Shown here: positions 51,621 to 61,047 of the stretch, in pieces | Layout: every line of letters begins with the position of its first letter | Numbering within the stretch: the stretch's first letter is position 1 | Source: a phage | DNA length: 64,000 bases | Reading direction: 5' to 3' (one strand) | Sequence record: PZ445442.1 | Made by a program: the position numbers and the translations under genes | Notes under the pieces: model-generated | What the model saw: the letters and a program-made list of their open reading frames with translations, nothing else | Databases searched by the model: none | What the model was told of the DNA's origin: nothing

Positions 51621-52019
51621 ATGAAAACCACTACCTTTAATTTTGATAATGCAGACTTTTCTTTTTCTGATGTCAAGAACTGCCGCCGTGATCGTGGATT
51701 TTACAAGGCTTATAATCTGGTGGGCCTGGACGATGACAATAATTTGCACGAAGTAGCTGAGATCCGGTATTATGCCGCCGCCAGCGGGAACACTCACTAC
51801 TGCGTGTTTTGGATTCACGACAACAAGAACAATAAGTACGGTTATACTGGCGGCAAGGCGAGCGGTCACGGTTACGATAAAGCTAACGCAGCACTTGAGA
51901 GCGCATTAAATGCTATGGGGATCACTGCCGACGGCTGGATCTACGAAGAAGAGTTTTTGTCGGCACTTGCTGACCACCTGGGCTATAAAAAACACATTGT
52001 AACATGCGCCCACGAATAA
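51621..52019 (+). CDS. hypothetical early protein
   Basis: 132-aa ORF, RBS AAGAGGA. Confidence 0.5.
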   Translation: MKTTTFNFDNADFSFSDVKNCRRDRGFYKAYNLVGLDDDNNLHEVAEIRYYAAASGNTHYCVFWIHDNKNNKYGYTGGKASGHGYDKANAALESALNAMGITADGWIYEEEFLSALADHLGYKKHIVTCAHE

Positions 52020-52025
52020 AAATCA

Positions 52026-52053
52026 TTGACACGCTGCAAAATTTAAGTAAACT
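52026..52053 (+). promoter_or_regulatory. sigma70-like promoter
   Basis: TTGACA-16nt-TAAACT; followed by stem-loop 52064-52082. Confidence 0.45.
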
Positions 52054-52063
52054 AGACACAAAA

Positions 52064-52082
52064 GGCGGGAATGTTTCCCGCC
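52064..52082 (+). other. 5'-UTR GC stem-loop (GGCGGGAA-TGT-TTCCCGCC)
   Basis: Perfect 8-bp stem, 3-nt loop, no downstream T-tract; between promoter and RBS of 52102 gene. Confidence 0.5.
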
Positions 52083-52101
52083 AGCACAAAGGAAAAAGAT
52101 C

Positions 52102-52497
52102 ATGAATAAGAACGTACGCCGCATCATGAACGAACTGGCAAACGATGAAAAAATTATTGATATGCATTTGGTCAACATTTGCCGCCGTTGTGTAACATAT
52201 AACAACCGCGCCGCAAAAGCGCGTGAGATGAACGCAAAAGGCACCTTAAAGCCCTTTCAGGTGGTTGTAAAATCTATAACTAGCGCAGCAGGCCAGGCGC
52301 AGGACCACAACAACGAGAGCGCTAATATTGATCCGTCTTACGTAATGAAACGGATCCGGACTTGCAAGAATAAAGAGCAGGTATATAACGTCATAGATTG
52401 GCTGGACTCCCTGGGCGATGTGGTTTACAATAGGTTTTCTGCAGCTATCGAGATCCAGCTTGACAGATTGGACGGGAAAGTACTAAAAACTTATTGA
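52102..52497 (+). CDS. hypothetical early protein
   Basis: 131-aa ORF, RBS AAAGGAAAAAG. Confidence 0.5.
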   Translation: MNKNVRRIMNELANDEKIIDMHLVNICRRCVTYNNRAAKAREMNAKGTLKPFQVVVKSITSAAGQAQDHNNESANIDPSYVMKRIRTCKNKEQVYNVIDWLDSLGDVVYNRFSAAIEIQLDRLDGKVLKTY

Positions 52498-52499
52498 GT

Positions 52500-52545
52500 T
52501 TATTTTTAGATGGCCTTGACACCAGGGCCATCAATAAAGTAAACT
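52500..52545 (+). promoter_or_regulatory. repeated palindrome-containing promoter cassette, copy 1
   Basis: TTATTTTTAGATGGCCTTGACACCAGGGCCATCAATAAAGTAAACT; TTGACA flanked by inverted repeat GATGGCC/GGCCATC; near-identical copies at 53120 and 56853. Confidence 0.5.
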
Positions 52546-52576
52546 AACCACAGTTGAGCGGAAAGGGGGCTTAAAG

Positions 52577-52696
52577 ATGAGCACTACACGCCAGCACACA
52601 AAGGTAACCATCATCGTTTGCATCATTGGGTACATCCTGGCGCAAATGTTGATGGGTAGCGCCAACGGTGTCGCAAAATTTTTCTTAAACTTTTAA
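52577..52696 (+). CDS. small hydrophobic peptide (39 aa)
   Basis: MSTTRQHTKVTIIVCIIGYILAQMLMGSANGVAKFFLNF; RBS AAAGGGGG; below the 60-aa track cutoff. Confidence 0.4.
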   Translation: MSTTRQHTKVTIIVCIIGYILAQMLMGSANGVAKFFLNF

Positions 52697-52724
52697 TTGA
52701 CAAGCTAACTTAAATCGATATAAT
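52697..52724 (+). promoter_or_regulatory. sigma70-like promoter
   Basis: TTGACA-16nt-TATAAT; followed by stem-loop GGGAA-AAC-TTCCC (52737-52749). Confidence 0.55.
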
Positions 52725-52775
52725 AAGCACATAAACGGGAAAACTTCCCAGAACACACAAAAGGAGAAAAACACC

Positions 52776-53117
52776 ATGACTACTATGACCGCCTCAGAAA
52801 AAGCTATGCAGATCGCTGAACTGAAAAAACAGATCGCAGACCTTGAGAATAAGATCGATAACTTTGAAATCGACGAGGACAAGTACGACGAAAACTATGA
52901 TGAATGGTTAGACGAGATCTACGGCGAAATTATGATCGGAAACATTTCTTTTCTTCCGTCGCGTATCCTCAAGGAGCTAGATCCTATCGCTTACCGCTGC
53001 GGATTTAGCGACTACATCGACAGCCTGGATATTGAGGACGATGAAGAATACCAGGAATTACAGACAGAGTTAGAAGAAGCAAAAGAAGAGCTTGCGGAGC
53101 TGGAAGAAAACGAGTAA
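52776..53117 (+). CDS. highly acidic early protein
   Basis: 113 aa, very Asp/Glu-rich with coiled-coil-like N-terminus; RBS AAAGGAGAAA. Confidence 0.5.
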   Translation: MTTMTASEKAMQIAELKKQIADLENKIDNFEIDEDKYDENYDEWLDEIYGEIMIGNISFLPSRILKELDPIAYRCGFSDYIDSLDIEDDEEYQELQTELEEAKEELAELEENE

Positions 53118-53119
53118 GC

Positions 53120-53165
53120 TTATTTTTAGATGGCCTTGACACCAGGGCCATCAATAAAGTAAACT
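53120..53165 (+). promoter_or_regulatory. repeated palindrome-containing promoter cassette, copy 2
   Basis: Identical 46-bp element to 52500-52545. Confidence 0.5.
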
Positions 53166-53206
53166 TTATACTGTTAACACTGAACTAATGCATAGGAGTT
53201 AAAACC

Positions 53207-53452
53207 ATGGCAGCACTAATCACCAAATATTATGCCCCTACCAACACCAAAAGCGCCCGTATCATGGTAAAAGGCTTCGGACGTAAAAAGGTGTACACCT
53301 GGGATTATGCCTTAGACACGGAAGACAACTACACCAACGCAATGACCGATTTTATTAATGAACTAAATAAGCAGATCTTGACAAGTTATAAAGTGACCGA
53401 TATTGCTTATATAGGTGAAGGCGGGATCTGTTTTGTAGGCATTGTGAAATAG
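53207..53452 (+). CDS. hypothetical early protein
   Basis: 81-aa ORF, RBS AGGAG. Confidence 0.45.
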   Translation: MAALITKYYAPTNTKSARIMVKGFGRKKVYTWDYALDTEDNYTNAMTDFINELNKQILTSYKVTDIAYIGEGGICFVGIVK

Positions 53453-53500
53453 TTATTTTTTCGGTGGTCCTGGTTGCAGGGCCATCTATAAAGATAATTT
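53453..53500 (+). promoter_or_regulatory. degenerate copy of the repeated promoter cassette
   Basis: TTATTTTTTCGGTGGTCCTGGTTGCAGGGCCATCTATAAAGATAAT: same layout with substitutions. Confidence 0.4.
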
Positions 53501-53526
53501 ATTAACACCATGAAAGGAGAAAGTAC

Positions 53527-54066
53527 ATGATCAGCGGGGCAAGTTTTATTATTGGCGCTATTGCTACGGCTTTAATTGTAAATAAGATCCAGGATAAAAA
53601 GGAAAGAGGAAGTACCGCCCTTGCAGAATATCCATTTTGGGCATTCAACGATAACGAAGATTATATTATAAAGTATAAAAATAAAGAAGGTGACCAAGTA
53701 ACACCGCGACCGATCCCGGCTTACAAAATGCAGGAAACACTATACCGCCTGGAGGCGGGAGGCGCAAAAATTGTAGACTTTTGGGGATACGACCACACAG
53801 ATCAGGAAGTTATAAAGCGCCGTATCCGGGCTATTCAGGCCAATATTGAAGTTAGCAAGGGGGAATATATGAAAATTAATTTCGAGAAAATTGTAAAGCG
53901 CCCTCATGATTCCGAAGAGCTGCCAGAACGCCGCCAGCGTAACAATAAACTGAATAAGCCAAAAAGGTTTGGGAAGATCTGGCGTAATCATTATGATCGT
54001 AAATTGCCCGGCCTACTTTTGGAACGTGAACGACAGGCAGAACGATACCGCCATAAAGACAAATAA
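53527..54066 (+). CDS. hypothetical membrane-anchored early protein
   Basis: 179 aa; N-terminal hydrophobic helix then basic C-terminus; RBS AAAGGAGAAAG. Confidence 0.5.
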   Translation: MISGASFIIGAIATALIVNKIQDKKERGSTALAEYPFWAFNDNEDYIIKYKNKEGDQVTPRPIPAYKMQETLYRLEAGGAKIVDFWGYDHTDQEVIKRRIRAIQANIEVSKGEYMKINFEKIVKRPHDSEELPERRQRNNKLNKPKRFGKIWRNHYDRKLPGLLLERERQAERYRHKDK

Positions 54067-54074
54067 CAACCAAC

Positions 54075-54100
54075 GCCCCGCCATTGTGCGGGGCTTTTTA
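54075..54100 (+). terminator. Rho-independent terminator
   Basis: GCCCCGC-CATTGT-GCGGGGC followed by TTTTTATTT. Confidence 0.65.
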
Positions 54101-54307
54101 TTTCTATCCTACGAATAGCGCCCCTGGTTGGCCCCACAAACGCCACAAAAGCCCCTACCTATGCAATCCCCTTTCTTGACCTGAAAACAACGTCTAGGGC
54201 CGTTTTATGGCGTTAAAAATATTATTGACAGTGATTTTATTCAAAGCTTGACACCTTGGAATAGTCCGGATATACTAACCACATCAAAGCAAGAAGGAGT
54301 AAACGCC

Positions 54308-54568
54308 ATGCGTAAATTAAAAAATTTTGATAAAGTAGATGTTGTCCTGAATAATTTTTACTACTGCAATAATAAAGCCGTTTGGTGGCGTGATAGCTCC
54401 ACCGATAAAGTTAAAGCGCGCTTTCTCCAGGGGCACTGGCAAGGCCGCCCAGTGATTAAAATCTTAGGGCAATTGGTAGCGTTTAAAAATTGCCACCGTG
54501 TTGACGACGTTGAAGATATTTTGAACATTTTACGCCACAATAATTTAAAAAATAGTGTTGACAAGTAA
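54308..54568 (+). CDS. hypothetical early protein
   Basis: 86 aa from ATG 54308 (RBS AAGGAG); promoter TTGACA-17-TATACT upstream at about 54208-54236. Confidence 0.45.
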   Translation: MRKLKNFDKVDVVLNNFYYCNNKAVWWRDSSTDKVKARFLQGHWQGRPVIKILGQLVAFKNCHRVDDVEDILNILRHNNLKNSVDK

Positions 54569-54585
54569 GCCTCAATAAGTATACT
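54558..54585 (+). promoter_or_regulatory. sigma70-like promoter
   Basis: TTGACA-16nt-TATACT; followed by stem-loop GGCGGGAA-AAC-TTCCCGCC (54596-54614). Confidence 0.55.
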
Positions 54586-54642
54586 TAAACACACAGGCGG
54601 GAAAACTTCCCGCCACTAACAAAGAAAATAGGAGAAAATATC

Positions 54643-55266
54643 ATGACCACCGTTAACATTACTACAGGTTACAATTTATCTTTCGACGTGCTGACCGACG
54701 AACAAAAAGAAAAAGCCGTTGAAATGGTCCGCGAAAGAGAAGAACACAGCGGGGATAATTTTTTTGCAGAAAGTGTAATTGAATACTATAAAGAATATGT
54801 TTTTCCAGAGTATGGCCTTGAAGATACCGAAGTACATTGGTCAGGCTTTTGGTGCCAGGGTGACGGCGCGTCAATCAGTGCGGAAAACGTGGATTTAGAA
54901 AAATTCTTGCGTAAAGTAAAGGCCCTGACCAAGTTCCGATCAATTCGTCACTTGTTCGGCACAATGCACGATGGCGAGCTATCCGCAAGTGTTGAGCGTG
55001 ATCCATATAGCCGCTATAGTCACGAAAACACTGTAAGCGGGTACATCGATACTACATGGCTAGACCTGACCGCCAAACAAGAAAATAAAGTGGAAGATCT
55101 GGAAGAGCTGATCACCGAGACGGTACGGGAGCTATCCCGCAAGGTTTACGTAGACCTGGAGGAGGCCTATCTTGAGCAATTTACCGCCGAAAACTTGATC
55201 GGCCTTATCGAGGCAAATGATTGGCGGTTTGATGTGGATGAGCATGGCGAGATGAGTTTTTCATAA
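54643..55266 (+). CDS. hypothetical acidic early protein
   Basis: 207-aa ORF, RBS AGGAGAAAA. Confidence 0.5.
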   Translation: MTTVNITTGYNLSFDVLTDEQKEKAVEMVREREEHSGDNFFAESVIEYYKEYVFPEYGLEDTEVHWSGFWCQGDGASISAENVDLEKFLRKVKALTKFRSIRHLFGTMHDGELSASVERDPYSRYSHENTVSGYIDTTWLDLTAKQENKVEDLEELITETVRELSRKVYVDLEEAYLEQFTAENLIGLIEANDWRFDVDEHGEMSFS

Positions 55267-55311
55267 ATAAAGTGTTGCAATAATCTAAAAACCTGCTATA
55301 TTAAAACTCAA

Positions 55312-55330
55312 GGGGCAAGACGTTTGCCCC
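55312..55330 (+). other. 5'-UTR GC stem-loop
   Basis: GGGGCAA-GACG-TTGCCCC between a TTGCAA/TATATT promoter-like element and the RBS of 55356. Confidence 0.45.
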
Positions 55331-55355
55331 CACACAAAACAAAGAGGAAAACATC

Positions 55356-55736
55356 ATGAAAAACACTACTAAAGCTATTGACACCGTCATGTTTAACCTG
55401 GTTACATTCCGTGAAGATATGAAAGATCTTCCTCGTGAAACAGTGTGCGACCATATCGAAAACTATCGCAAACTAATCAAAGAGTTGCCTTTAAAACGTG
55501 ATCAATATGCGGCTAACGCCATGCTTAATGCCATGATCAAAAAGATGATCCAGTGTGATTTAACCCTGGCCTATGATTATGCAGGCGGTCGTTTTGCAGT
55601 ATACAATCAGCCCGTGCCCGGTATGAGCACCACCGAAGAATTGCACGCGCTCAATCTAAAACAAGACGTGTGGGATAGTATGCCTCGCGTGGTGGTATGG
55701 GTAGAAAGCGGAAAGATTTACGGCGATAATTTTTAA
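55356..55736 (+). CDS. hypothetical early protein
   Basis: 126-aa ORF, RBS AAGAGGAAAA. Confidence 0.5.
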   Translation: MKNTTKAIDTVMFNLVTFREDMKDLPRETVCDHIENYRKLIKELPLKRDQYAANAMLNAMIKKMIQCDLTLAYDYAGGRFAVYNQPVPGMSTTEELHALNLKQDVWDSMPRVVVWVESGKIYGDNF

Positions 55737-55743
55737 TCAGGTA

Positions 55744-55770
55744 GCAGGCGGCATATTTGCCGCCTTATTG
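55744..55770 (+). terminator. Rho-independent terminator
   Basis: AGGCGGCA-TATT-TGCCGCCT followed by TATTGTT. Confidence 0.5.
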
Positions 55771-55800
55771 TTAATCAGAACTGTAAAAGAGGTACATAGA

Positions 55801-56172
55801 ATGGAATTTATTATTTTGGCTGTATTTGTTGCCTTGTTCAACGCCTGGATCGCTGGCAAGATGGGTAGATCCGCCTTTTTATGGTTTATTATATCTATTT
55901 TCCTGGGGGTGGTTGCAACTATTGTACTTGTTATCCTTGCAATTGTTGACAAGGGGAATAATAGAAAGGGTAAAGTATTTTCAGACCTGTACGACGCTCA
56001 AACGTTTGTCAACGCCTATTATAGTGATCTTCCAGTCTCCCTACGCTGCAGCCTGGCACAACAAGTTTTCGATGAGGCTAAAACCAGAGATCAAGCCCAT
56101 GAGATATGTTTAACTGAGGCGGATCGCCTATTTGAGAGGAATAGAAAATATGTGGGCCAACCGTTTAAATAA
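55801..56172 (+). CDS. small membrane protein
   Basis: 123 aa from ATG 55801 (RBS AAGAGG); two predicted TM helices in the N-terminal half. Confidence 0.45.
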   Translation: MEFIILAVFVALFNAWIAGKMGRSAFLWFIISIFLGVVATIVLVILAIVDKGNNRKGKVFSDLYDAQTFVNAYYSDLPVSLRCSLAQQVFDEAKTRDQAHEICLTEADRLFERNRKYVGQPFK

Positions 56173-56371
56173 TGCCACATTAATTAATCCCTTTAGTGAA
56201 GATTTGAAGCCAGCCGCCTGGCGTGATGGATTCAATAACGAACGCTTTATTTTCAAGCCTGATCTTGAGGAATTTTATAACAATGGATCGAACAACGACA
56301 GAGATAATTTTTCTTGTGGTGTGCGTAGTGATGGTACTCCTGGGGGCCATTGTAAACCACGTCACTACTAA
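56150..56371 (+). CDS. hypothetical early protein
   Basis: 73 aa from ATG 56150 (RBS GAGAGGAA). Confidence 0.4.
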   Translation: MWANRLNNATLINPFSEDLKPAAWRDGFNNERFIFKPDLEEFYNNGSNNDRDNFSCGVRSDGTPGGHCKPRHY

Positions 56372-56391
56372 CAGGGGGAAAGGGGGAGACG

Positions 56392-56511
56392 ATGACACCC
56401 AAGGATAAGCCCCGCACCGATAAGGCGCGCCGTGTTATGGTATGGCTTGAGATCATCGCCCTTGAAATATTGTTAGGGGTAGGGATGTACTTTATCGCTG
56501 TAAGTAACTAA
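56392..56511 (+). CDS. small hydrophobic peptide (39 aa)
   Basis: MTPKDKPRTDKARRVMVWLEIIALEILLGVGMYFIAVSN; RBS AAGGGGGAG; followed by terminator. Confidence 0.4.
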   Translation: MTPKDKPRTDKARRVMVWLEIIALEILLGVGMYFIAVSN

Positions 56512-56514
56512 GAA

Positions 56515-56545
56515 CGGCCCCCCGATCATGGGGGCCTATCTTTTA
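56515..56545 (+). terminator. Rho-independent terminator
   Basis: GGCCCCC-CGATCAT-GGGGGCC followed by TATCTTTT. Confidence 0.55.
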
Positions 56546-56602
56546 AAAAAATTCTTCCGGGGTGTTGCAATCCGGTCCGGAATGTGGATAATAACAATCA
56601 AC

Positions 56603-56617
56603 GGGGAGCTAATCCCC
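56603..56617 (+). other. 5'-UTR GC stem-loop
   Basis: GGGGA-GCTAA-TCCCC downstream of a TTGCAA...GATAAT promoter-like element, upstream of RBS of 56649. Confidence 0.4.
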
Positions 56618-56648
56618 ACCACCACAAAAACCAGAAAGGAGAAACAAA

Positions 56649-56849
56649 ATGAGCAACAATATCCGCGTTATTAACTTCAAAAAAGAAGAAAAAATTGCCG
56701 TGCTGATTGACGGTCAAGAAATCTTCAAGGGCGACTATGAAGATCATCAAACGGCGATTAGTATCACTCGCGTGATTGGTTACCATAATTTTTACCCCCA
56801 AGGCGCTGAGGCAGCGGTTAAACGAATCAAAGAGATTGTAGGCCTGTAA
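56649..56849 (+). CDS. hypothetical early protein
   Basis: 66-aa ORF, RBS AAAGGAGAAA. Confidence 0.45.
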   Translation: MSNNIRVINFKKEEKIAVLIDGQEIFKGDYEDHQTAISITRVIGYHNFYPQGAEAAVKRIKEIVGL

Positions 56850-56852
56850 AAT

Positions 56853-56897
56853 TTATTTTTAGATGGCCTTGACTCCAGGGCCATCAATAAAGTAAAT
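56853..56897 (+). promoter_or_regulatory. repeated palindrome-containing promoter cassette, copy 3
   Basis: TTATTTTTAGATGGCCTTGACTCCAGGGCCATCAATAAAGTAAAT, two substitutions relative to copies 1-2. Confidence 0.5.
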
Positions 56898-56943
56898 TTA
56901 AACCCTGTTAAAAATACCACGCAGTTAACAAGGAGTGATAGAC

Positions 56944-57243
56944 ATGTTTATCCAGGCTAATAATCTTTATTTCTTTGATGGTCAGATCGTAGACGGCGTG
57001 GAGGTGGAAATCACCGGGTGCCCTAGCGGTCAGGTTATGACTTTTCGGAATAATGCCTTTGATGATTCTCATATCGTTATGAGAATGGAAGTTAGTAAGC
57101 TGGATGACAAGAAAACACTTATCGACTATTCCGTCAAAGATCATCCAGACTACCACATGATCTATGGTGATTTGTGCATTGTTGACCGTGACAAGGTTGG
57201 CGGCATTGTGATCGCTATTGTGAACGATGTTTTCTCAAACTAA
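56944..57243 (+). CDS. hypothetical early protein
   Basis: 99 aa from ATG 56944 (RBS AAGGAG). Confidence 0.45.
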   Translation: MFIQANNLYFFDGQIVDGVEVEITGCPSGQVMTFRNNAFDDSHIVMRMEVSKLDDKKTLIDYSVKDHPDYHMIYGDLCIVDRDKVGGIVIAIVNDVFSN

Positions 57244-57260
57244 TTTCAGCAGGTAATTTT

Positions 57261-57611
57261 ATGAAAGTAAAACTATATTACCTTAATGAGCTTAACCCCC
57301 TTGCCCAGGTCCGCGCCCTGGCTAATACCTTGATTTGTGAGAAATCTGTATATTGTGTTGAGCTTAACGCCATGCGTGAACGTCTCAAAGGTGGTTACTT
57401 TGACATCCATGCTGCAATCAACGGCCTGAATATAGAATTTATCCGCTTACGTAACAGCCGCCAGAATCTGGCAAGAATGGAACAAGATCCGGCCCACCTT
57501 CGTAAGCTGGTTATTGAAAATCATCTGATGTTTAATGCCGATGGTGATTATTACCATTTTCACCGTAAACGCTGGTACCGTAGCGGCAATATAGGAAAGA
57601 ATGCAAAATAA
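57261..57611 (+). CDS. hypothetical early protein
   Basis: 116-aa ORF. Confidence 0.45.
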   Translation: MKVKLYYLNELNPLAQVRALANTLICEKSVYCVELNAMRERLKGGYFDIHAAINGLNIEFIRLRNSRQNLARMEQDPAHLRKLVIENHLMFNADGDYYHFHRKRWYRSGNIGKNAK

Positions 57612-57647
57612 GGCCCCTGGCAGGGCCTGCAGCGATATAATCACATA

Positions 57648-57680
57648 AAGGCTATGCGGTTGCATAGCCTTTATTATTTT
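57648..57680 (+). terminator. Rho-independent terminator
   Basis: AAAGGCTATGC-GGT-TGCATAGCCTTT followed by ATTATTTT. Confidence 0.6.
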
Positions 57681-57820
57681 GGCGTTACAGCGGCCCCCAA
57701 GGCGCTTAAAAAATTTTTAAAGAAGTACTTGCATCAAGTCCTACAATATGGATAATAAAGGGTGTCGGGGGGGGGCGGTGAGGCCTCCAATCATTAACCG
57801 GATAGATAGGAGTTAAAACC

Positions 57821-58105
57821 ATGGCTATTGTTACCGTTGGCGATGTAGTGGAAATGGAAGCAAAATACTTAAAAGCGGGTATGCATATCCTACGCAACGA
57901 TCTTGAACTAGTCCTGACAATGGTTGACTATAACCCAGGGCAAGATTATCCAAGCATCGACTACTTTTTTGAGTATGTTGATGAAGAGTTGAAAGAGGAT
58001 GAGGCCTATTGCGGTGAGTTCTGCAATTTCTTTTGTCCTGATGAGGTTGTAAAGGTTATCTATCAACCTGGCGTACCTTTCCCGCTGCACGCTATCAATA
58101 AATAA
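57821..58105 (+). CDS. hypothetical early protein
   Basis: 94-aa ORF, RBS AGGAG. Confidence 0.45.
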   Translation: MAIVTVGDVVEMEAKYLKAGMHILRNDLELVLTMVDYNPGQDYPSIDYFFEYVDEELKEDEAYCGEFCNFFCPDEVVKVIYQPGVPFPLHAINK

Positions 58106-58168
58106 ACCTGGTGGGGCCGAAAAGGCCCCCTCCTGAAACTATGAAAAAATAAAGAGAGGTAAATCATC

Positions 58169-58402
58169 ATGATGGAACAAATTAAACGCGCTGAGTCTAT
58201 TAATGGCAATGTGATCTATTTTGTCAGCAAAAACGAAAAAGGCGTACCATATGCGGCGGTAATAGTACAACCTGACGGCGATTATTGGTTTACTGTATAC
58301 GGATCTTATTCTTTCGGGCGTCCGGTTCATGATAGAATTTTGAAAGTAGCAAATCCGACCGGGAAAAATATCACAGCAGAAAAATTTTTTGAAAATAGTT
58401 GA
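58169..58402 (+). CDS. hypothetical early protein
   Basis: 77-aa ORF, RBS AAGAGAGG. Confidence 0.45.
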   Translation: MMEQIKRAESINGNVIYFVSKNEKGVPYAAVIVQPDGDYWFTVYGSYSFGRPVHDRILKVANPTGKNITAEKFFENS

Positions 58403-58426
58403 CATGACCATATAAGACTGTAATAT
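58399..58426 (+). promoter_or_regulatory. sigma70-like promoter
   Basis: TTGACA-16nt-TAATAT; followed by stem-loop about 58437-58453. Confidence 0.5.
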
Positions 58427-58478
58427 ATAAATCAAAGGGGGGCAACAAGCCCCACCAACCACAAAGAGGATAAAAATC

Positions 58479-58658
58479 ATGGCTATTATTGCAAAGACTG
58501 AGATCGTAGGCTTAGATTCTATTCTCCTCGCATATGAGGAAGCTATAGAAATGTATGTGGTTTCCTATGGTGAGTATATTCGTGAATATAAATCTATTGA
58601 TCTGGCTTTTGAATGTTATATTCGCCAGGTAAATAAAGCATATGATGATTATCGTTAA
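58479..58658 (+). CDS. small early protein (59 aa)
   Basis: MAIIAKTEIVGLDSILLAYEEAIEMYVVSYGEY...; RBS AAAGAGGA; just below the track cutoff. Confidence 0.4.
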   Translation: MAIIAKTEIVGLDSILLAYEEAIEMYVVSYGEYIREYKSIDLAFECYIRQVNKAYDDYR

Positions 58659-58664
58659 AATAGT

Positions 58665-58692
58665 TTGACAACAATTACAAATCGGGTAGAAT
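58665..58692 (+). promoter_or_regulatory. sigma70-like promoter
   Basis: TTGACA-16nt-TAGAAT; followed by conserved GTATTTCGTAGGGCGG and stem-loop 58705-58720. Confidence 0.5.
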
Positions 58693-58743
58693 GTATTTCG
58701 TAGGGCGGCAATGATGCCGCTCACAACTAAAAGAGAGATCATC

Positions 58744-58938
58744 ATGGCGCTTAAAAAACTAACAAGCAATACTCGTTGGGATGAAATCGACGGGGAAGTT
58801 TACATTTTTGCCCGTAAACCAGGGGATCAAAAATGGTCAAAGGCTTTTACTTGCCATCCTGCAACAATAGATCTGATAAAAAGTCAAGGACTACGTGAAG
58901 CAGTAGCAAGAAGTTTACTGATCCCTTGTAAAAATTAG
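58744..58938 (+). CDS. small early protein
   Basis: 64 aa from ATG 58744 (RBS AAAAGAGAG). Confidence 0.4.
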   Translation: MALKKLTSNTRWDEIDGEVYIFARKPGDQKWSKAFTCHPATIDLIKSQGLREAVARSLLIPCKN

Positions 58939-58939
58939 T

Positions 58940-58967
58940 TTGACAACAGTCAACAATCTGGTAAAGT
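58940..58967 (+). promoter_or_regulatory. sigma70-like promoter
   Basis: TTGACA-16nt-TAAAGT; followed by stem-loop GCGGGAA-TAC-TTCCCGC (58980-58996). Confidence 0.45.
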
Positions 58968-59015
58968 GTACTACATAGCGCGGGAATACTTCCCGCCATT
59001 AATGAGGGTAATTTA

Positions 59016-59153
59016 ATGAAAACTTTCAACGCAACAGCCTCGACAATTGGTTATATTATTACAGTACAAGCCGTGGATCTGGTAGCAGCAGCAAACAAGA
59101 TTAAAAAGATGATTCCGCCAGGTAGTGAATTTTCCGTTTGGGAAGTAAAATAA
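59016..59153 (+). CDS. small early protein (45 aa)
   Basis: MKTFNATASTIGYIITVQAVDLVAAANKIKKMIPPGSEFSVWEVK; RBS-like GAGGG upstream. Confidence 0.35.
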   Translation: MKTFNATASTIGYIITVQAVDLVAAANKIKKMIPPGSEFSVWEVK

Positions 59154-59236
59154 ATCTTGACAATAGTTTATTACTTGATAGACTGTATTTCGTAGGGCGG
59201 GGCAATAAGGCAACGCCCATTAATGAGGGTAGAATC

Positions 59237-59341
59237 ATGTTAGAGAAAATTTTCACGGTTGTAGTAGTTGGCCTGGCATTATCGGTTGGAGTGGTTGCAA
59301 CTATGGCTAACATGATCCTATCTTCCCACGGTATCGGTTAA
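59237..59341 (+). CDS. small hydrophobic peptide (34 aa)
   Basis: MLEKIFTVVVVGLALSVGVVATMANMILSSHGIG: single TM helix; RBS GAGGG; the track's longer ORF spans the promoter. Confidence 0.35.
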   Translation: MLEKIFTVVVVGLALSVGVVATMANMILSSHGIG

Positions 59342-59342
59342 G

Positions 59343-59567
59343 GTGAATCAAATGATCACGAATAAGACAGGTAAAACAGAATTTTTACGCGGCTTGCAAA
59401 TAGGTAAGCCTGAGATCTGGCATTGCACTAAAACACCACGTGACGAAATGAAAGACTTCACCGCCACGCTGCAACGGGTAAAGATATCCATCACGCAGAA
59501 AAAGGCCTTGATAGTGGTGGAAGGTGAGATCCCTCAAACCGTTGTTATAGTTGAGCGTACAGCATAG
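59343..59567 (+). CDS. hypothetical early protein
   Basis: 74-aa ORF. Confidence 0.4.
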   Translation: MNQMITNKTGKTEFLRGLQIGKPEIWHCTKTPRDEMKDFTATLQRVKISITQKKALIVVEGEIPQTVVIVERTA

Positions 59568-59658
59568 TTTAATTTATAGCGATACCTGAAAATTAACCAA
59601 TAAATCATAAACAGGCGGTTACCGCCGCCTTAAACGTAGCAGAAAGAGGCTAGACACA

Positions 59659-59943
59659 ATGAAAAAGATGATCGCAGTAGTTGCCCTGGTTGTTGGACTT
59701 AATGCGCCTGTAATGGCTAAAGAGCTGGCAAAAGAGGTTAATCTAACGGATATCCATGCCGTCAATCAAATCGGGGTTACTTATCGCTTATGCCTTGCCG
59801 CTAAAACTTTTAATGACGGCACAACAGAGTACTACGGATTCGAGGGTATCCGGTGCGGTAAGCTTGCTCGCGACCTTAAGGAAGATCCAGACCTGGAAGA
59901 TCTGCCCATCACCGTAAACGGTAAAGCTTACGTAAACCGTTAA
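59659..59943 (+). CDS. small secreted/periplasmic protein
   Basis: 94 aa with signal peptide MKKMIAVVALVVGLNAPVMA; RBS AAAGAGG. Confidence 0.45.
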   Translation: MKKMIAVVALVVGLNAPVMAKELAKEVNLTDIHAVNQIGVTYRLCLAAKTFNDGTTEYYGFEGIRCGKLARDLKEDPDLEDLPITVNGKAYVNR

Positions 59944-59945
59944 CC

Positions 59946-60080
59946 ATGAGAAAGATAATCATCACCTTGGGGATTGTGGCTGGATCGCTGGCGCTCTTTC
60001 CCCTTATGGTTAGGTATGTGCTGATCAGTATTGTCCTGGTAGTCAGTGATCTATTGGGAACGGTTGGCACCTTGTTTTAA
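59946..60080 (+). CDS. small hydrophobic peptide (44 aa)
   Basis: MRKIIITLGIVAGSLALFPLMVRYVLISIVLVVSDLLGTVGTLF; start 3 nt after upstream stop. Confidence 0.35.
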   Translation: MRKIIITLGIVAGSLALFPLMVRYVLISIVLVVSDLLGTVGTLF

Positions 60081-60092
60081 AGAGCGATAAAA

Positions 60093-60284
60093 ATGAATAT
60101 CGAACAAGTTAGAAAGGTATTGGCGGTACTGCGTTATCATAATCATAGAAAGGTTATAGACGATCCTGATTATGTTGATTCAAGTCTGGAAGGGGATACA
60201 CTGCAAGCCATAAGCAACATGCAAGAATTGCTCAAGCGCATGACAGAGAAAAACCGACCGGACTACATAGGCGAAAAAATATAA
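60093..60284 (+). CDS. hypothetical early protein
   Basis: 63-aa ORF. Confidence 0.4.
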   Translation: MNIEQVRKVLAVLRYHNHRKVIDDPDYVDSSLEGDTLQAISNMQELLKRMTEKNRPDYIGEKI

Positions 60285-60300
60285 TCCTTATAAACTACAA

Positions 60301-60330
60301 AACAGGGCTTGCAATGGTCCTGTTTTTTGT
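60301..60330 (+). terminator. Rho-independent terminator
   Basis: AACAGG...CCTGTT stem followed by TTTTTG. Confidence 0.45.
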
Positions 60331-60343
60331 TATACTTGTTTCA

Positions 60344-60389
60344 CGGCAGGCACCTGGCGACGGGTGGAGACAATCACCGGGCCTGCCTG
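60344..60389. repeat. GC-rich palindromic element (inverted copy)
   Basis: GGCAGGCACCTGGCGACGGGTGGAGACAATCACCGGGCCTGCC; reverse complement matches the 50771 core. Confidence 0.45.
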
Positions 60390-60412
60390 TCATATAAGAA
60401 CTATAAAAACCG

Positions 60413-60441
60413 TTGACATCTGCCAGGTGGTGGGGTAACAT
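60413..60441 (+). promoter_or_regulatory. sigma70-like promoter
   Basis: TTGACA-17nt-TAACAT; followed by stem-loop GGGCA-AAAG-TGCCC (60453-60466). Confidence 0.5.
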
Positions 60442-60495
60442 TTATCTTGAAGGGGCAAAAGTGCCCACACAACAACCAGAAGAGAGGAAAACATT

Positions 60496-60768
60496 ATGTC
60501 AAGCTGGATTAATCAAGAAGTCGAATCACGTTTTAATGCTATTTGGGATCTCATCGAAAAAGAGGACGGAACATCAAGCCCTTATCTCAATAATCTTGAA
60601 TTCCATTTCGTGGAAGCGATGAACGCAGAACATGATCACGAAGGTGGTGCGGATGAGTTCGCTAAAGGGTATGGCTTCAACAATGCCAACGAAATGATCG
60701 AGGCGGTTGTACTCCAGGCTGAGGAAGATTATCAATTAAAAACGCTTGAATTCTGCCGCCGTAAGTAA
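60496..60768 (+). CDS. hypothetical acidic early protein
   Basis: 90-aa ORF, RBS AGAGAGGAAAA. Confidence 0.45.
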   Translation: MSSWINQEVESRFNAIWDLIEKEDGTSSPYLNNLEFHFVEAMNAEHDHEGGADEFAKGYGFNNANEMIEAVVLQAEEDYQLKTLEFCRRK

Positions 60769-60782
60769 TAAGATAATGACAC

Positions 60783-60796
60783 GGGCCAAAAGGCCC
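60783..60796 (+). other. 5'-UTR GC stem-loop
   Basis: GGGCC-AAAA-GGCCC upstream of RBS of 60829 gene. Confidence 0.4.
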
Positions 60797-60828
60797 ACTA
60801 ATCAGAACCACACAAAGAGAGAAAGAAA

Positions 60829-61047
60829 ATGACAACCCGTAAAATTAAAGTTGTTTGCATTGAATCGACTGGGGGCGCTTTTGTAGTTGGTCAGGAATAT
60901 AATGCGGTTTTAATGGGTACGGATTGGAAGGTTAAAGGCCTTAATGGTTACGAGTACGGCACTACTTGCGGCTTGCGTGGTCGAATCGGATACGTGAGTT
61001 TAGACAACAAAGAAAAATTTGTTTTCGACACCGTTGTGAGTAAATAG
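60829..61047 (+). CDS. hypothetical early protein
   Basis: 72-aa ORF, RBS AAAGAGAGAAAG. Confidence 0.45.
   Translation: MTTRKIKVVCIESTGGAFVVGQEYNAVLMGTDWKVKGLNGYEYGTTCGLRGRIGYVSLDNKEKFVFDTVVSK

Follow-up and report, generated by a model that had tools for sequence, protein, structure and literature searches.

In the hyperplastic region of T4-type phages, small nonessential ORFs without assigned function are flanked by PeSLs (promoter-early stem-loops), in which near-consensus sigma-70 promoters are combined with stem-loops and SD sequences, and the order and context of these ORFs change from one related phage to the next, the breaks falling within the repeated regulatory elements (Arbiol et al. 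2010, PMC2839356; Comeau et al. 2014, PMC4122927). The window analyzed here (64,000 nucleotides of phage DNA; PZ445442.1) has a similar organization and reordering in another lineage (Vequintavirinae, Stephanstirmvirinae). The window is 100% identical to Escherichia phage EmilHeitz (Bas49), an rV5-like Vequintavirus, and six of its short ORFs are considered here: A (bas49_0109), B (bas49_0118), C (bas49_0126), D (bas49_0129), E (bas49_0125), and F (bas49_0124). All six lie where the original prediction placed them, with the lengths given there, an ATG start, and a TAA stop. However, they were missed only relative to a first-stage cutoff of 60 aa, and the supposedly unexplained gaps hold genes that are CDSs in the phage's own GenBank record (MZ501062.1; bas49_0109, 0118, 0124, 0125, 0126, and 0129), in rV5 since 2008/2013, and in PHROGs.

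The nearest relatives are in rV5 itself (NC_011041), where ORF193/gp188, ORF181/gp176, ORF173/gp168, ORF170/gp165, and ORF174/gp169 are direct orthologues of A, B, C, D, and F, respectively, with shared gene order and lengths (the C allele excepted) and 63 to 97% nucleotide identity; E has no orthologue there. In Table S3 of Kropinski et al. 2013 (Virol J 10:76), the entry for each of the rV5 orthologues of A to D reads "membrane protein, 1 TMD." All six ORFs have end-to-end PHROG matches (E-values from 1e-22 to 1e-39) to families that are without functional annotation: 16391 for A (full length, 1.8e-31), 13629 for B (7e-32), 14631 for C, 16005 for D, 29854 for E (9e-37), and 9374 for F (6.5e-39); we noted no difference between these PHROGs and the window peptides. 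A to F are real, conserved, and previously catalogued small genes, and the membrane-peptide label of A to D dates from 2013. With considerable confidence, we regard the six as genuine small genes of the early host-takeover region of an rV5-like myovirus, encoding probably accessory membrane and soluble peptides.

The coding evidence is consistent across the set. In up to 18 distinct orthologues, every frame is intact and ungapped with invariant start and stop positions, substitutions cluster at third codon positions, and of the six possible frames it is the annotated one that shows the lowest pN/pS (range, 0.07 to 0.47); under a column-permutation null, the joint P is at most about 0.0065 for each ORF. 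For A, nine of nine distinct orthologous nucleotide sequences are intact, variable columns are distributed 9/1/13 by codon position, and pN/pS is 0.17 (joint permutation P, 0.0065). The corresponding pN/pS values are 0.12 to 0.22 for B (joint P, 0.004 to 0.008), 0.34 for C (18/18 distinct orthologues intact; permutation P, 0/2000), 0.14 for E (joint P, 0.0005), and 0.07 for F (variable columns, 9/2/30; permutation P, 0/2000). The signal for D is modest and the weakest of the six (pN/pS, 0.47; P, 0.015; joint, 0.0025), with 15 distinct orthologues intact at nucleotide identities down to 67%, and the antisense −1 frame of D stays open in every relative as well (pN/pS, 0.59). As judged from these comparisons, the frames of A to F are maintained under purifying selection across Vequintavirus, and those of C, D, E, and F also in phi92-like and Phapecoctavirus phages; these are more than chance ORFs. 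Mass spectrometry in the rV5 study covered virions only (Kropinski et al. 2013, Virol J 10:76).

It could be argued instead that these are chance ORFs in spacers and that the conserved matter is noncoding (5′ UTRs, promoters, terminators, or small RNAs). The region is indeed crowded with regulatory hairpins and promoters that are conserved, crude SD-like runs of at least 4 nt precede 28% of all ATGs, and two other short CDSs of the same record, bas49_0107 and bas49_0131, are without coding signal and look spurious. Nonetheless, we give this reading almost no credence; it is strongly disfavored by the third-position bias and frame-specific pN/pS, by the invariant starts and stops and freedom from frame-breaking indels, by the permutation results, and by the two alleles of C, which are only 53% identical in amino acid sequence yet keep their length, hydrophobicity, and C-terminal motif.

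Each ORF had also been credited with a good RBS, and for A, B, C, E, and F the SD is kept in relatives, as AAGG(G/A)GG for A and as GGGGGAG, 4 nt 5′ of the start, for B. D is the exception, with no SD 5′ of it in the window phage and a stop-start geometry instead: its ATG (GTG in naswa and slur16) lies 2 nt past the bas49_0128 stop or overlaps it, and the geometry is conserved in relatives, which indicates stop-start coupling of D translation to that of bas49_0128.

A, C, E, and F share a stereotyped cassette comprising a sigma-70-like promoter, a GC-rich 5′ UTR stem-loop, an A-rich spacer, and an SD. Promoter and stem-loop are at 59157-59184 and 59195-59218 for C (59237..59341, + strand), 58940-58967 and 58980-58996 for E (59016..59153, + strand), and 58399-58426 and 58437-58453 for F (58479..58658, + strand). 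A (52577..52696, + strand) is preceded by the hairpin GATGGCC-TTGACACCAG-GGCCATC (52509..52545, + strand), whose loop holds the −35 TTGACA, with a −10 of TAAACT (10/12 in the promoter scan at 52516-52545); this hairpin putatively supplies A with its promoter and the gene upstream with a terminator, and the window contains three of its type (52509, 53129, and 56862), with none expected by chance. A perfect consensus sigma-70 promoter (TTGACA-16-TATAAT, 12/12; 52697..52724, + strand) opens at the base after the A stop and serves the gene 3′ of A; rV5 has P192 annotated at the equivalent site. Overall, there are 38 promoter-like sites, 33 of them on the + strand, compared with 24.7±3.9 expected, and 26 terminator-like sites, compared with 10.3±3.2 expected. 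The proposal that each ORF occupies the otherwise unexplained space from a promoter or stem-loop to the following gene describes A, C, E, and F, but not B and D, which are distal and operon-internal.

In other phages, the same cassettes are found in different order and position, and A to F are part of a repertoire of small cassettes that are shuffled among phages of the rV5-like and phi92-like groups, resembling the T4 PeSL modules. They would be dispensable modules, carried from phage to phage when the repeated promoter/stem-loop cassettes recombine. The architectures differ: most window cassettes have the stem-loop 3′ of the −10, in the 5′ UTR, and three copies have the −35 inside the hairpin loop, whereas the PeSLs of PST, as a figure legend in PMC4122927 describes them, have the stem-loop immediately 5′ of the promoter. 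From promoter type and genome position we infer early timing for A to F, with unmodified host RNA polymerase transcribing them in the first minutes of infection.

Hydrophobicity, together with the coding and translation signals and the TMHMM/Phobius predictions, supports A, B, C, and D as membrane peptides in which one long hydrophobic helix is dominant. On the Hessa scale, C, D, A, and B take second, third, fifth, and seventh place among the 207 ATG-initiated ORFs of 30 to 60 aa that the six frames contain. The dG19 is below zero for C (−0.71) and D (−0.35), borderline for A (+0.9; −0.6 for a 17-mer), and marginal for B (+2.1) because of two Glu within the helix, so that autonomous insertion of B is not assured. 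The expectation of a single transmembrane helix agrees with the one TMD called by TMHMM/Phobius in the rV5 orthologues of A to D, but is qualified by the marginal B and by the two hydrophobic stretches of D; E and F are soluble, as predicted. A (39 aa; full length in 113 phage records) consists of a basic N-terminal stretch, a hydrophobic core of 17 to 19 residues (VTIIVCIIGYILAQMLM), and a conserved AKFFLNF tail. B (39 aa; 56392..56511, + strand; 119 phage records) has a highly basic N terminus (6 K/R) followed by the near-invariant helix VMVWLEIIALEILLGVGMYFIAV, which contains the two Glu. Given their N-terminal positive charges, A and B would probably insert in the inner membrane N-in/C-out. 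C (34 aa, single pass) leads a two-gene unit with bas49_0127 (59352-59567) and is present in 157 phage records in two subfamilies; among 1.84 billion representative proteins, it is found in just 2 clusters; its two alleles share a C-terminal ATMANMILSSxGIG, and the rV5 allele, 53% identical over 34 aa, is annotated as 46 aa through an upstream start.

B closes a three-gene operon (0116-0117-B) whose first gene, bas49_0116, encodes another membrane protein, and a terminator-like GC-rich hairpin followed by a T-rich tract (56516..56536, + strand; 7 G-C pairs, −18 kcal/mol fold) directly 3′ of B marks the operon end. A rival reading would make A to D lysis proteins (holin, antiholin, pinholin, or spanin-like), permeabilizing the membrane at the end of infection: bas49_0116 is labeled "putative holin" in the record, an unannotated alternative-frame peptide adjoining B has faint PHROG holin/spanin matches (E about 0.05 to 0.09), and A to D are small with one helix each. 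We consider this very improbable. A to D sit among the sigma-70 promoter cassettes of the small-ORF region and match no holin or spanin family in PHROG or Pfam; the rV5 orthologues, at 108 to 115 kb, are more than 36 kb from the lysin (gp89, 71.5 kb) and at least 14 kb from the putative holin of the rV5 paper (ORF129, 94 kb), which gives two or three helices as usual for holins, as opposed to the one of A to D (Kropinski et al. 2013, Virol J 10:76). A core role in either replication or lysis is unlikely for A to F.

The most likely purpose would be accessory, either modulating the host envelope or excluding superinfecting phages. The peptides may act stoichiometrically, with the transmembrane helix packing against a host or incoming-phage membrane protein; such packing would suit their conserved small-xxx-small motifs as well as their polar residues (for B, E20/E25; for D, S34-D35; for C, the tail motif). 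Pfam, NCBIfam, PHROG, PDB sequence, and fold searches gave no target or function for the peptides, and nothing in the homology, family, structure, or literature evidence here points to a host envelope or division target; by analogy with other phages, targeting of the host envelope is plausible. The more specific form of this idea in the original prediction, that the peptides are takeover effectors inhibiting or retuning an inner-membrane machine (divisome, lipid II synthesis, transporters, or membrane-bound defense sensors), is in our view possible but less likely than not. The two-Glu transmembrane segment of B is almost invariant, as expected of a specific intramembrane contact, and many bacterial small membrane proteins regulate larger ones (PMC12648545). 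A precedent for the kind of target envisaged is PhiNM1 Gp11, an early-gene product that is small, membrane-located, and both binds and inhibits MurG and DivIC, although it is from a Gram-positive temperate phage, lacks homology, and has experimentally shown toxicity and partners (PMC11237401). The peptides have no homology to any characterized effector and are accessory; the lack of E in rV5 and the alternative alleles of C and D argue against an essential takeover step.

Superinfection exclusion is relevant above all to D (44 aa; 59946..60080, + strand; 164 phage records), which is obligatorily coupled in all relatives to bas49_0128 (59659..59943, + strand). The latter encodes 94 aa with a Sec signal peptide (…APVMA|KE) and two Cys that are near-invariant in an alignment of 26 relatives, and is therefore probably a secreted, disulfide-containing periplasmic protein; it matches PHROG 9845, its best AlphaFold model has a pLDDT of 79.5, and a fold search with it gave no significant match. 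By analogy with T4 Imm and Sp, the peptides, especially D with bas49_0128, could block DNA entry of later phages from the inner membrane and periplasm, given an envelope location and probable early expression. Imm and Sp are likewise small, early, and envelope-located, and Imm binds the incoming phage's tape-measure protein, a membrane-inserting protein (bioRxiv 10.64898/2026.03.06.709160). We regard this role as unlikely, since neither sequence nor fold likens the peptides to Imm, to Sp, or to another known exclusion protein, and the parallel is purely one of analogy. Imm and Sp are also about twice as long.

In D, hydrophobic stretches at residues 4-22 and 25-44 surround a conserved R23-Y24, S34-D35-L36 is invariant, and the AlphaFold model is one 42-residue helix (2-43; pLDDT, 92.7); the C-terminal tail is LLGTVGTLF, compared with VLYINSLF in the rV5 orthologue. 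D variants align end to end with the similarly sized Pfam DUF7396 (2-43 versus 3-44 of 46), but at 13 to 17.7 bits, below the gathering threshold of 27, and the similarity may be compositional. One D orthologue is named "DUF3096 domain-containing protein" in UniRef, but DUF3096 gives no match to D at E-values up to 10.

The soluble members of the set are F, a 59-aa acidic protein whose exact sequence is present on 629 contigs, and the accessory 45-aa E, variants of which (45 to 48 aa) occur in Vequinta- and Phapecoctaviruses, with a decayed remnant in TSP7_1.

The six short open reading frames are real genes, and they are already on record. The 52000–60500 segment is 100% identical by megablast to Escherichia phage EmilHeitz (Bas49, BASEL; MZ501062.1), an rV5-like Vequintavirus of the Vequintavirinae, and matches more than 250 related phage records; coordinates in MZ501062.1 are those used here plus 32682. 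All six lie on the + strand exactly where predicted, initiated by ATG and terminated by TAA: the hydrophobic A (52577–52696, 39 aa; bas49_0109), B (56392–56511, 39 aa; bas49_0118), C (59237–59341, 34 aa; bas49_0126), and D (59946–60080, 44 aa; bas49_0129), and the soluble E (59016–59153, 45 aa; bas49_0125) and F (58479–58658, 59 aa; bas49_0124). They had been presented as missed, and they do fall below the 60-aa cut-off of the first-stage ORF track, but GenBank annotates all six as CDSs. Each matches a PHROG of unknown function (16391, 13629, 14631, 16005, 29854, and 9374; hmmscan E 2e-22 to 6.5e-39), from first to last residue on both protein and profile, and NCBI and UniRef already list the exact protein sequences as hypothetical, on anything from one contig (D) up to 629 (F). 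The record of the type phage rV5 (NC_011041) annotates orthologues of A, B, C, D, and F as gp188, gp176, gp168, gp165, and gp169, and the gene order and neighbors here are those of NC_011041 and other Vequintaviruses; E is without an rV5 orthologue and is found in slur16, naswa, and Phapecoctaviruses. The membrane assignment is likewise in print, as rV5 ORF193, ORF181, ORF173, and ORF170 are listed as 'membrane protein, 1 TMD' by TMHMM and Phobius (Kropinski et al. 2013, Table S3, PMC3606486). With the genes annotated, PHROG-clustered, and labeled as membrane proteins since the 2013 rV5 paper, their detection as it stands adds nothing to the record. Annotation is uneven, however, and many of the records positive by tblastn (full-length matches in 113 phage records for A, 119 for B, 157 for C, and 164 for D) lack a feature at these sites.

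To evaluate coding capacity, orthologous DNA was extracted from 27 related loci, of which 23 are from annotated phage records and 4 from IMG/VR, where a scan added only these four. This gave 9 distinct orthologue sequences for A, 7 to 11 for B, 18 for C, 15 for D, 5 for E, and 10 for F. Start and stop positions are constant and there is no frame-breaking indel in any distinct orthologue, apart from three minor departures: MiataMamis has a 3-nt in-frame indel in its B, some E orthologues are 48 aa long, and one E survives as a decayed remnant. Variation is most frequent at third codon positions and rarest at second positions (9/1/13 variable columns at positions 1/2/3 in A; 9/2/30 in F). For the annotated frame, pN/pS by the Nei-Gojobori method is 0.17 for A, 0.12 to 0.22 for B, 0.34 for C, 0.47 for D, 0.14 for E, and 0.07 for F, in each case the lowest of the six frames when compared with the two shifted and three antisense frames. 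We used a null in which variable columns are relocated among sites that share a reference base, leaving the spectrum of substitutions and the sequence relationships unchanged; the joint probability of a pN/pS that low together with no stop in any sequence is 0.0065 for A, 0.004 to 0.008 for B, <0.0005 for C, 0.0025 for D, 0.0005 for E, and <0.0005 for F. On this comparative evidence, A to F are genuine protein-coding genes. D is the weakest case, since all relatives also have an open antisense −1 frame there (pN/pS 0.59); in favor of the sense frame are the strictly unidirectional gene array, a hydrophobic character that is kept through conservative substitutions, and a start that is invariably placed at the stop codon of the gene before it. 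Antisense ORFs overlapping A to D were rejected as being under weaker constraint, and those frames opposite A are closed in most relatives. We found no Ribo-seq or infected-cell proteome for any Vequintavirus in the literature, and in the rV5 mass spectrometry the label 'structural protein (MS evidence)' is attached to none of these ORFs (Table S3, PMC3606486).

The same measures are of modest value as a quality check on annotation: CDSs of fewer than 60 aa are real here, two others probably are not, and such calls are absent from many related records. The two negative controls, bas49_0107 (33 aa, 52004–52105, +) and bas49_0131 (29 aa, 60327–60416, +), lack codon-position bias and any such coding signal. 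The TTG start of bas49_0131 is immediately 3′ of a terminator hairpin (60299–60326), and its frame is broken in more distant relatives, in which the bas49_0107 locus aligns with gaps or poorly; both are probably spurious gene calls. Conversely, a 64-aa gene at 58744–58938 (+) is absent from the EmilHeitz annotation, although its pN/pS of 0.17, its variable columns (4/2/16), and a match to PHROG 20168 argue that it is real. It is annotated in phi92 (gp243) and in naswa, where a 75-aa version starts at 58711; because relatives have ATA at 58711, the ATG at 58744 is probably the true start.

A further candidate has equivocal support. An unannotated 41-aa ORF (56283–56408, +; MDRTTTEIIFLVVCVVMVLLGAIVNHVTTNRGKGGDDDTQG) lies in the +1 frame relative to bas49_0117, the gene upstream of B, and retains its ATG and TAA in 14 distinct relatives; the enclosing 60-aa ORF (56226–56408) has the most hydrophobic segment among 207 short ORFs, and the 41-aa product is absent from all databases searched. 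The substitution pattern seems to switch at about 56283 from the bas49_0117 frame to that of the 41-aa ORF, which was promising, but with more sequences added the ORF failed the permutation test (pN/pS 0.64, joint P 0.16). The tail of bas49_0117 is likewise unconstrained, with a pN/pS of 2.0.

The original prediction of good ribosome binding sites holds for five of the six ORFs: Shine-Dalgarno sequences conserved in relatives lie 4 to 9 nt upstream of A (AAGGGGG), B (GGGGGAG), C (GAGGGT), E (GAGGGT), and F (AGAGGA). A Shine-Dalgarno sequence alone is weak evidence, since, across the window, 28% of ATGs follow a 4-nt run of this type. D is the exception, with no such sequence in any relative examined, and its start is always either 2 nt past, or overlapping, the stop codon of the upstream bas49_0128. 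From this absence, D must rely on termination-reinitiation and would thus be translationally coupled to bas49_0128, which is always immediately upstream.

The placement of each ORF between a promoter or stem-loop and the next gene holds in a similarly partial way. When the intergenic sequences of 52000–61000 are read, most genes are preceded by a cassette in which a TTGACA-N16-18-TAxxxT promoter is followed by a GC-rich 5′UTR stem-loop (−13 to −15 kcal/mol), an A-rich spacer, and a Shine-Dalgarno sequence. One such cassette stands before each of A, C, E, and F, but B and D lie within operons, B as the last gene of bas49_0116-bas49_0117-B with a strong terminator-like hairpin directly 3′, and D inside bas49_0128-D-bas49_0130. 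Promoter-like sites number 38, of which 33 are on the + strand, against 24.7±3.9 expected, and terminator-like hairpins number 26 against 10.3±3.2. A hairpin with the −35 TTGACA in its loop is present in three copies (52509–52532, 53129–53152, and 56862–56885), with none expected by chance. We also note three long noncoding gaps of about 210 to 240 nt in this tightly packed array (54067–54307, 57612–57820, and 60285–60495), which hold strong hairpins, G-runs, and promoters, for example a 13-bp stem at 57645–57674 and GCCCCGC…GCGGGGC at 54075–54094.

The predicted single transmembrane helix in A to D is borne out to differing degrees. All four rV5 orthologues are assigned one TMD by TMHMM/Phobius, and on the Hessa scale the best 19-residue windows are −0.71 for C, −0.35 for D, +0.94 for A (−0.64 for a 17-mer), and +2.10 for B, in whose helix there are two Glu residues; as judged by the length and apolarity of the segment, insertion is predicted for C and D, borderline for A, and marginal for B. 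E and F, described as soluble, are both above +6. When all 207 ATG-initiated ORFs of 30 to 60 aa, taken from every frame of the window, are ordered by hydrophobicity, C comes 2nd, D 3rd, A 5th, and B 7th; the property is therefore not a by-product of base composition. Positive charge at the N-termini of A and B suggests an N-in/C-out topology. D has two hydrophobic stretches flanking a conserved R23-Y24, but its AlphaFold model is one continuous helix (residues 2 to 43, pLDDT 92.7), which lends no support to a hairpin and is uninformative as to function; D may span the membrane once or twice. D was also considered as a lipoprotein and rejected, as it contains no Cys and the matches to LPAM_1 (14 versus 20 bits) and Mplas_variab_LP (16 versus 22 bits) are below threshold.

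The D partner bas49_0128 (59659–59943, +; 94 aa) carries a Sec signal peptide (…APVMA|KE) as well as two near-invariant Cys residues, and is therefore probably periplasmic. Its AlphaFold models are discordant across all five (best pLDDT 79.5), and fold searches found nothing significant in the PDB (best E 0.06, TM 0.33 or less) and, in BFVD, only its own family and uncharacterized viral proteins.

Searches of Pfam, NCBIfam, and PHROG with the six peptides and ten neighbors gave only PHROGs of unknown function, to which all of the operon neighbors belong, or subthreshold compositional matches (LPAM_1, YbgT, DUF6524, DUF7396, and Tom5). DUF7396 aligns end to end with D and was rejected at 13 to 18 bits against a gathering threshold of 27; matches were seen in 6 of 11 D variants (best 17.7 bits, E 0.004), with none for the D of the window itself. 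A UniRef 'DUF3096' label on one D orthologue was not reproduced in any of the 11 variants at E up to 10. A D profile has no match among PDB sequences at E up to 10, and no Pfam or NCBIfam match at E up to 1 was found to type I toxins and small toxic membrane peptides (Hok/Gef, Ldr, TisB, Ibs, and ShoB). An exhaustive HMMER search of 1.84 billion representative proteins places C in just two clusters, and in a 5.8-billion set D falls in 7 clusters and bas49_0128 in 42, those of D and bas49_0128 all being rV5-like, Phapecocta, or unnamed; by these counts, the C and D families do not extend beyond this phage group. A literature search turned up no work on the transcription, ribosome profiling, or function of these genes.

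A role in lysis, with A to D acting as a holin, antiholin, or spanin, is unlikely because of their distance from the lysis genes of rV5, in which the orthologues are at 108 to 115 kb, more than 36 kb from the lysin gp89 (71.5 kb) and at least 14 kb from the putative holin ORF129 (94 kb); nor does any of the four match a holin or spanin in PHROG or Pfam. As a separate matter of annotation, the label 'putative holin' on bas49_0116 (55801–56172, +) looks doubtful. This gene is in the early small-ORF region and matches only PHROGs of unknown function; in rV5 the orthologue, ORF183, is described only as 'membrane protein, 1-2 TMD', and the rV5 putative holin is ORF129, elsewhere (PMC3606486).

Comparison with rV5 and three further relatives (L005, L006, and L007) shows that C and D each have two allelic forms. 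Those of C are 53% identical and have in common only the C-terminal ATMANMILSSxGIG, and those of D share residues 1 to 36 and end in alternative tails of equal length, LLETVGTLF or VLYINSLF. The pattern suggests either contact of the variable parts with a diversifying partner or a plain lack of constraint on them. The C genes of EmilHeitz and the Phapecoctavirus REC also differ at a single nucleotide, a synonymous one, although REC matches just 27% of the 52400–60300 segment at about 81% identity. In REC, F is 5 kb away from E and C, a homologue of bas49_0123 is downstream of D, and the promoter/stem-loop segment 58657–58738 is found at three different intergenic sites; in UPEC06, C precedes E, the reverse of the order here, and rV5 lacks 58675–59285. 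Overall, cassette order and position in REC, UPEC06, and phi92 differ from those of 58160–60380, and the small-gene cassettes, as judged from these alignments, are mosaic and shuffled between Vequintavirinae and Stephanstirmvirinae. The arrangement closely resembles the modular shuffling mediated by the promoter-early stem-loop (PeSL) cassettes of T4-type phages (PMC2839356, PMC4122927), in that a sigma-70-like promoter, stem-loop, and Shine-Dalgarno sequence are repeated beside shuffled small ORFs, although the lineage here is rV5-like. For the T4-type cassettes, termination at the stem-loop and the mini-circles produced when cassettes recombine were addressed by transcript mapping and by PCR over the circle junctions (Arbiol et al. 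2010, PMC2839356).

Because no search for function was informative, we infer a mechanism in which A to D would be early-expressed inner-membrane peptides that act through helix packing against a membrane protein. Several features fit a specific contact: the almost invariant helix of B with E20 and E25, the invariant S34-D35-L36 of D, and the ATMANMILSSxGIG tail of C. Two purposes appear most plausible, with neither confidently preferred: superinfection exclusion, by analogy to T4 Imm, and modulation of a host envelope or division protein, by analogy to PhiNM1 Gp11; the original prediction had pointed to the host envelope or division machinery. A broader reading is tentative and, taken as a whole, rather doubtful, namely that at least one of A to D inhibits or modulates a defined inner-membrane target by specific helix packing (the target being either E. 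coli machinery or the apparatus with which a superinfecting phage delivers its DNA), that D forms a two-part envelope module with the secreted bas49_0128, and that the set as a whole is a shared stock of mobile envelope effectors, exchanged between Vequintavirinae and Stephanstirmvirinae by way of PeSL-like cassettes, whose description has until now been limited to T4-type phages. Bas49, as a BASEL phage, is tractable in the laboratory, and determining the target of any of the four peptides would usefully add to the few phage small membrane proteins of known mechanism.

Finally, we note that about 20 records (MG0656xx; 'Campylobacter phage C12, C5, A142…') labeled as C. jejuni phages are 93 to 96% identical to this region and carry A to D; probably either the host labels are wrong or the phages are contaminants.
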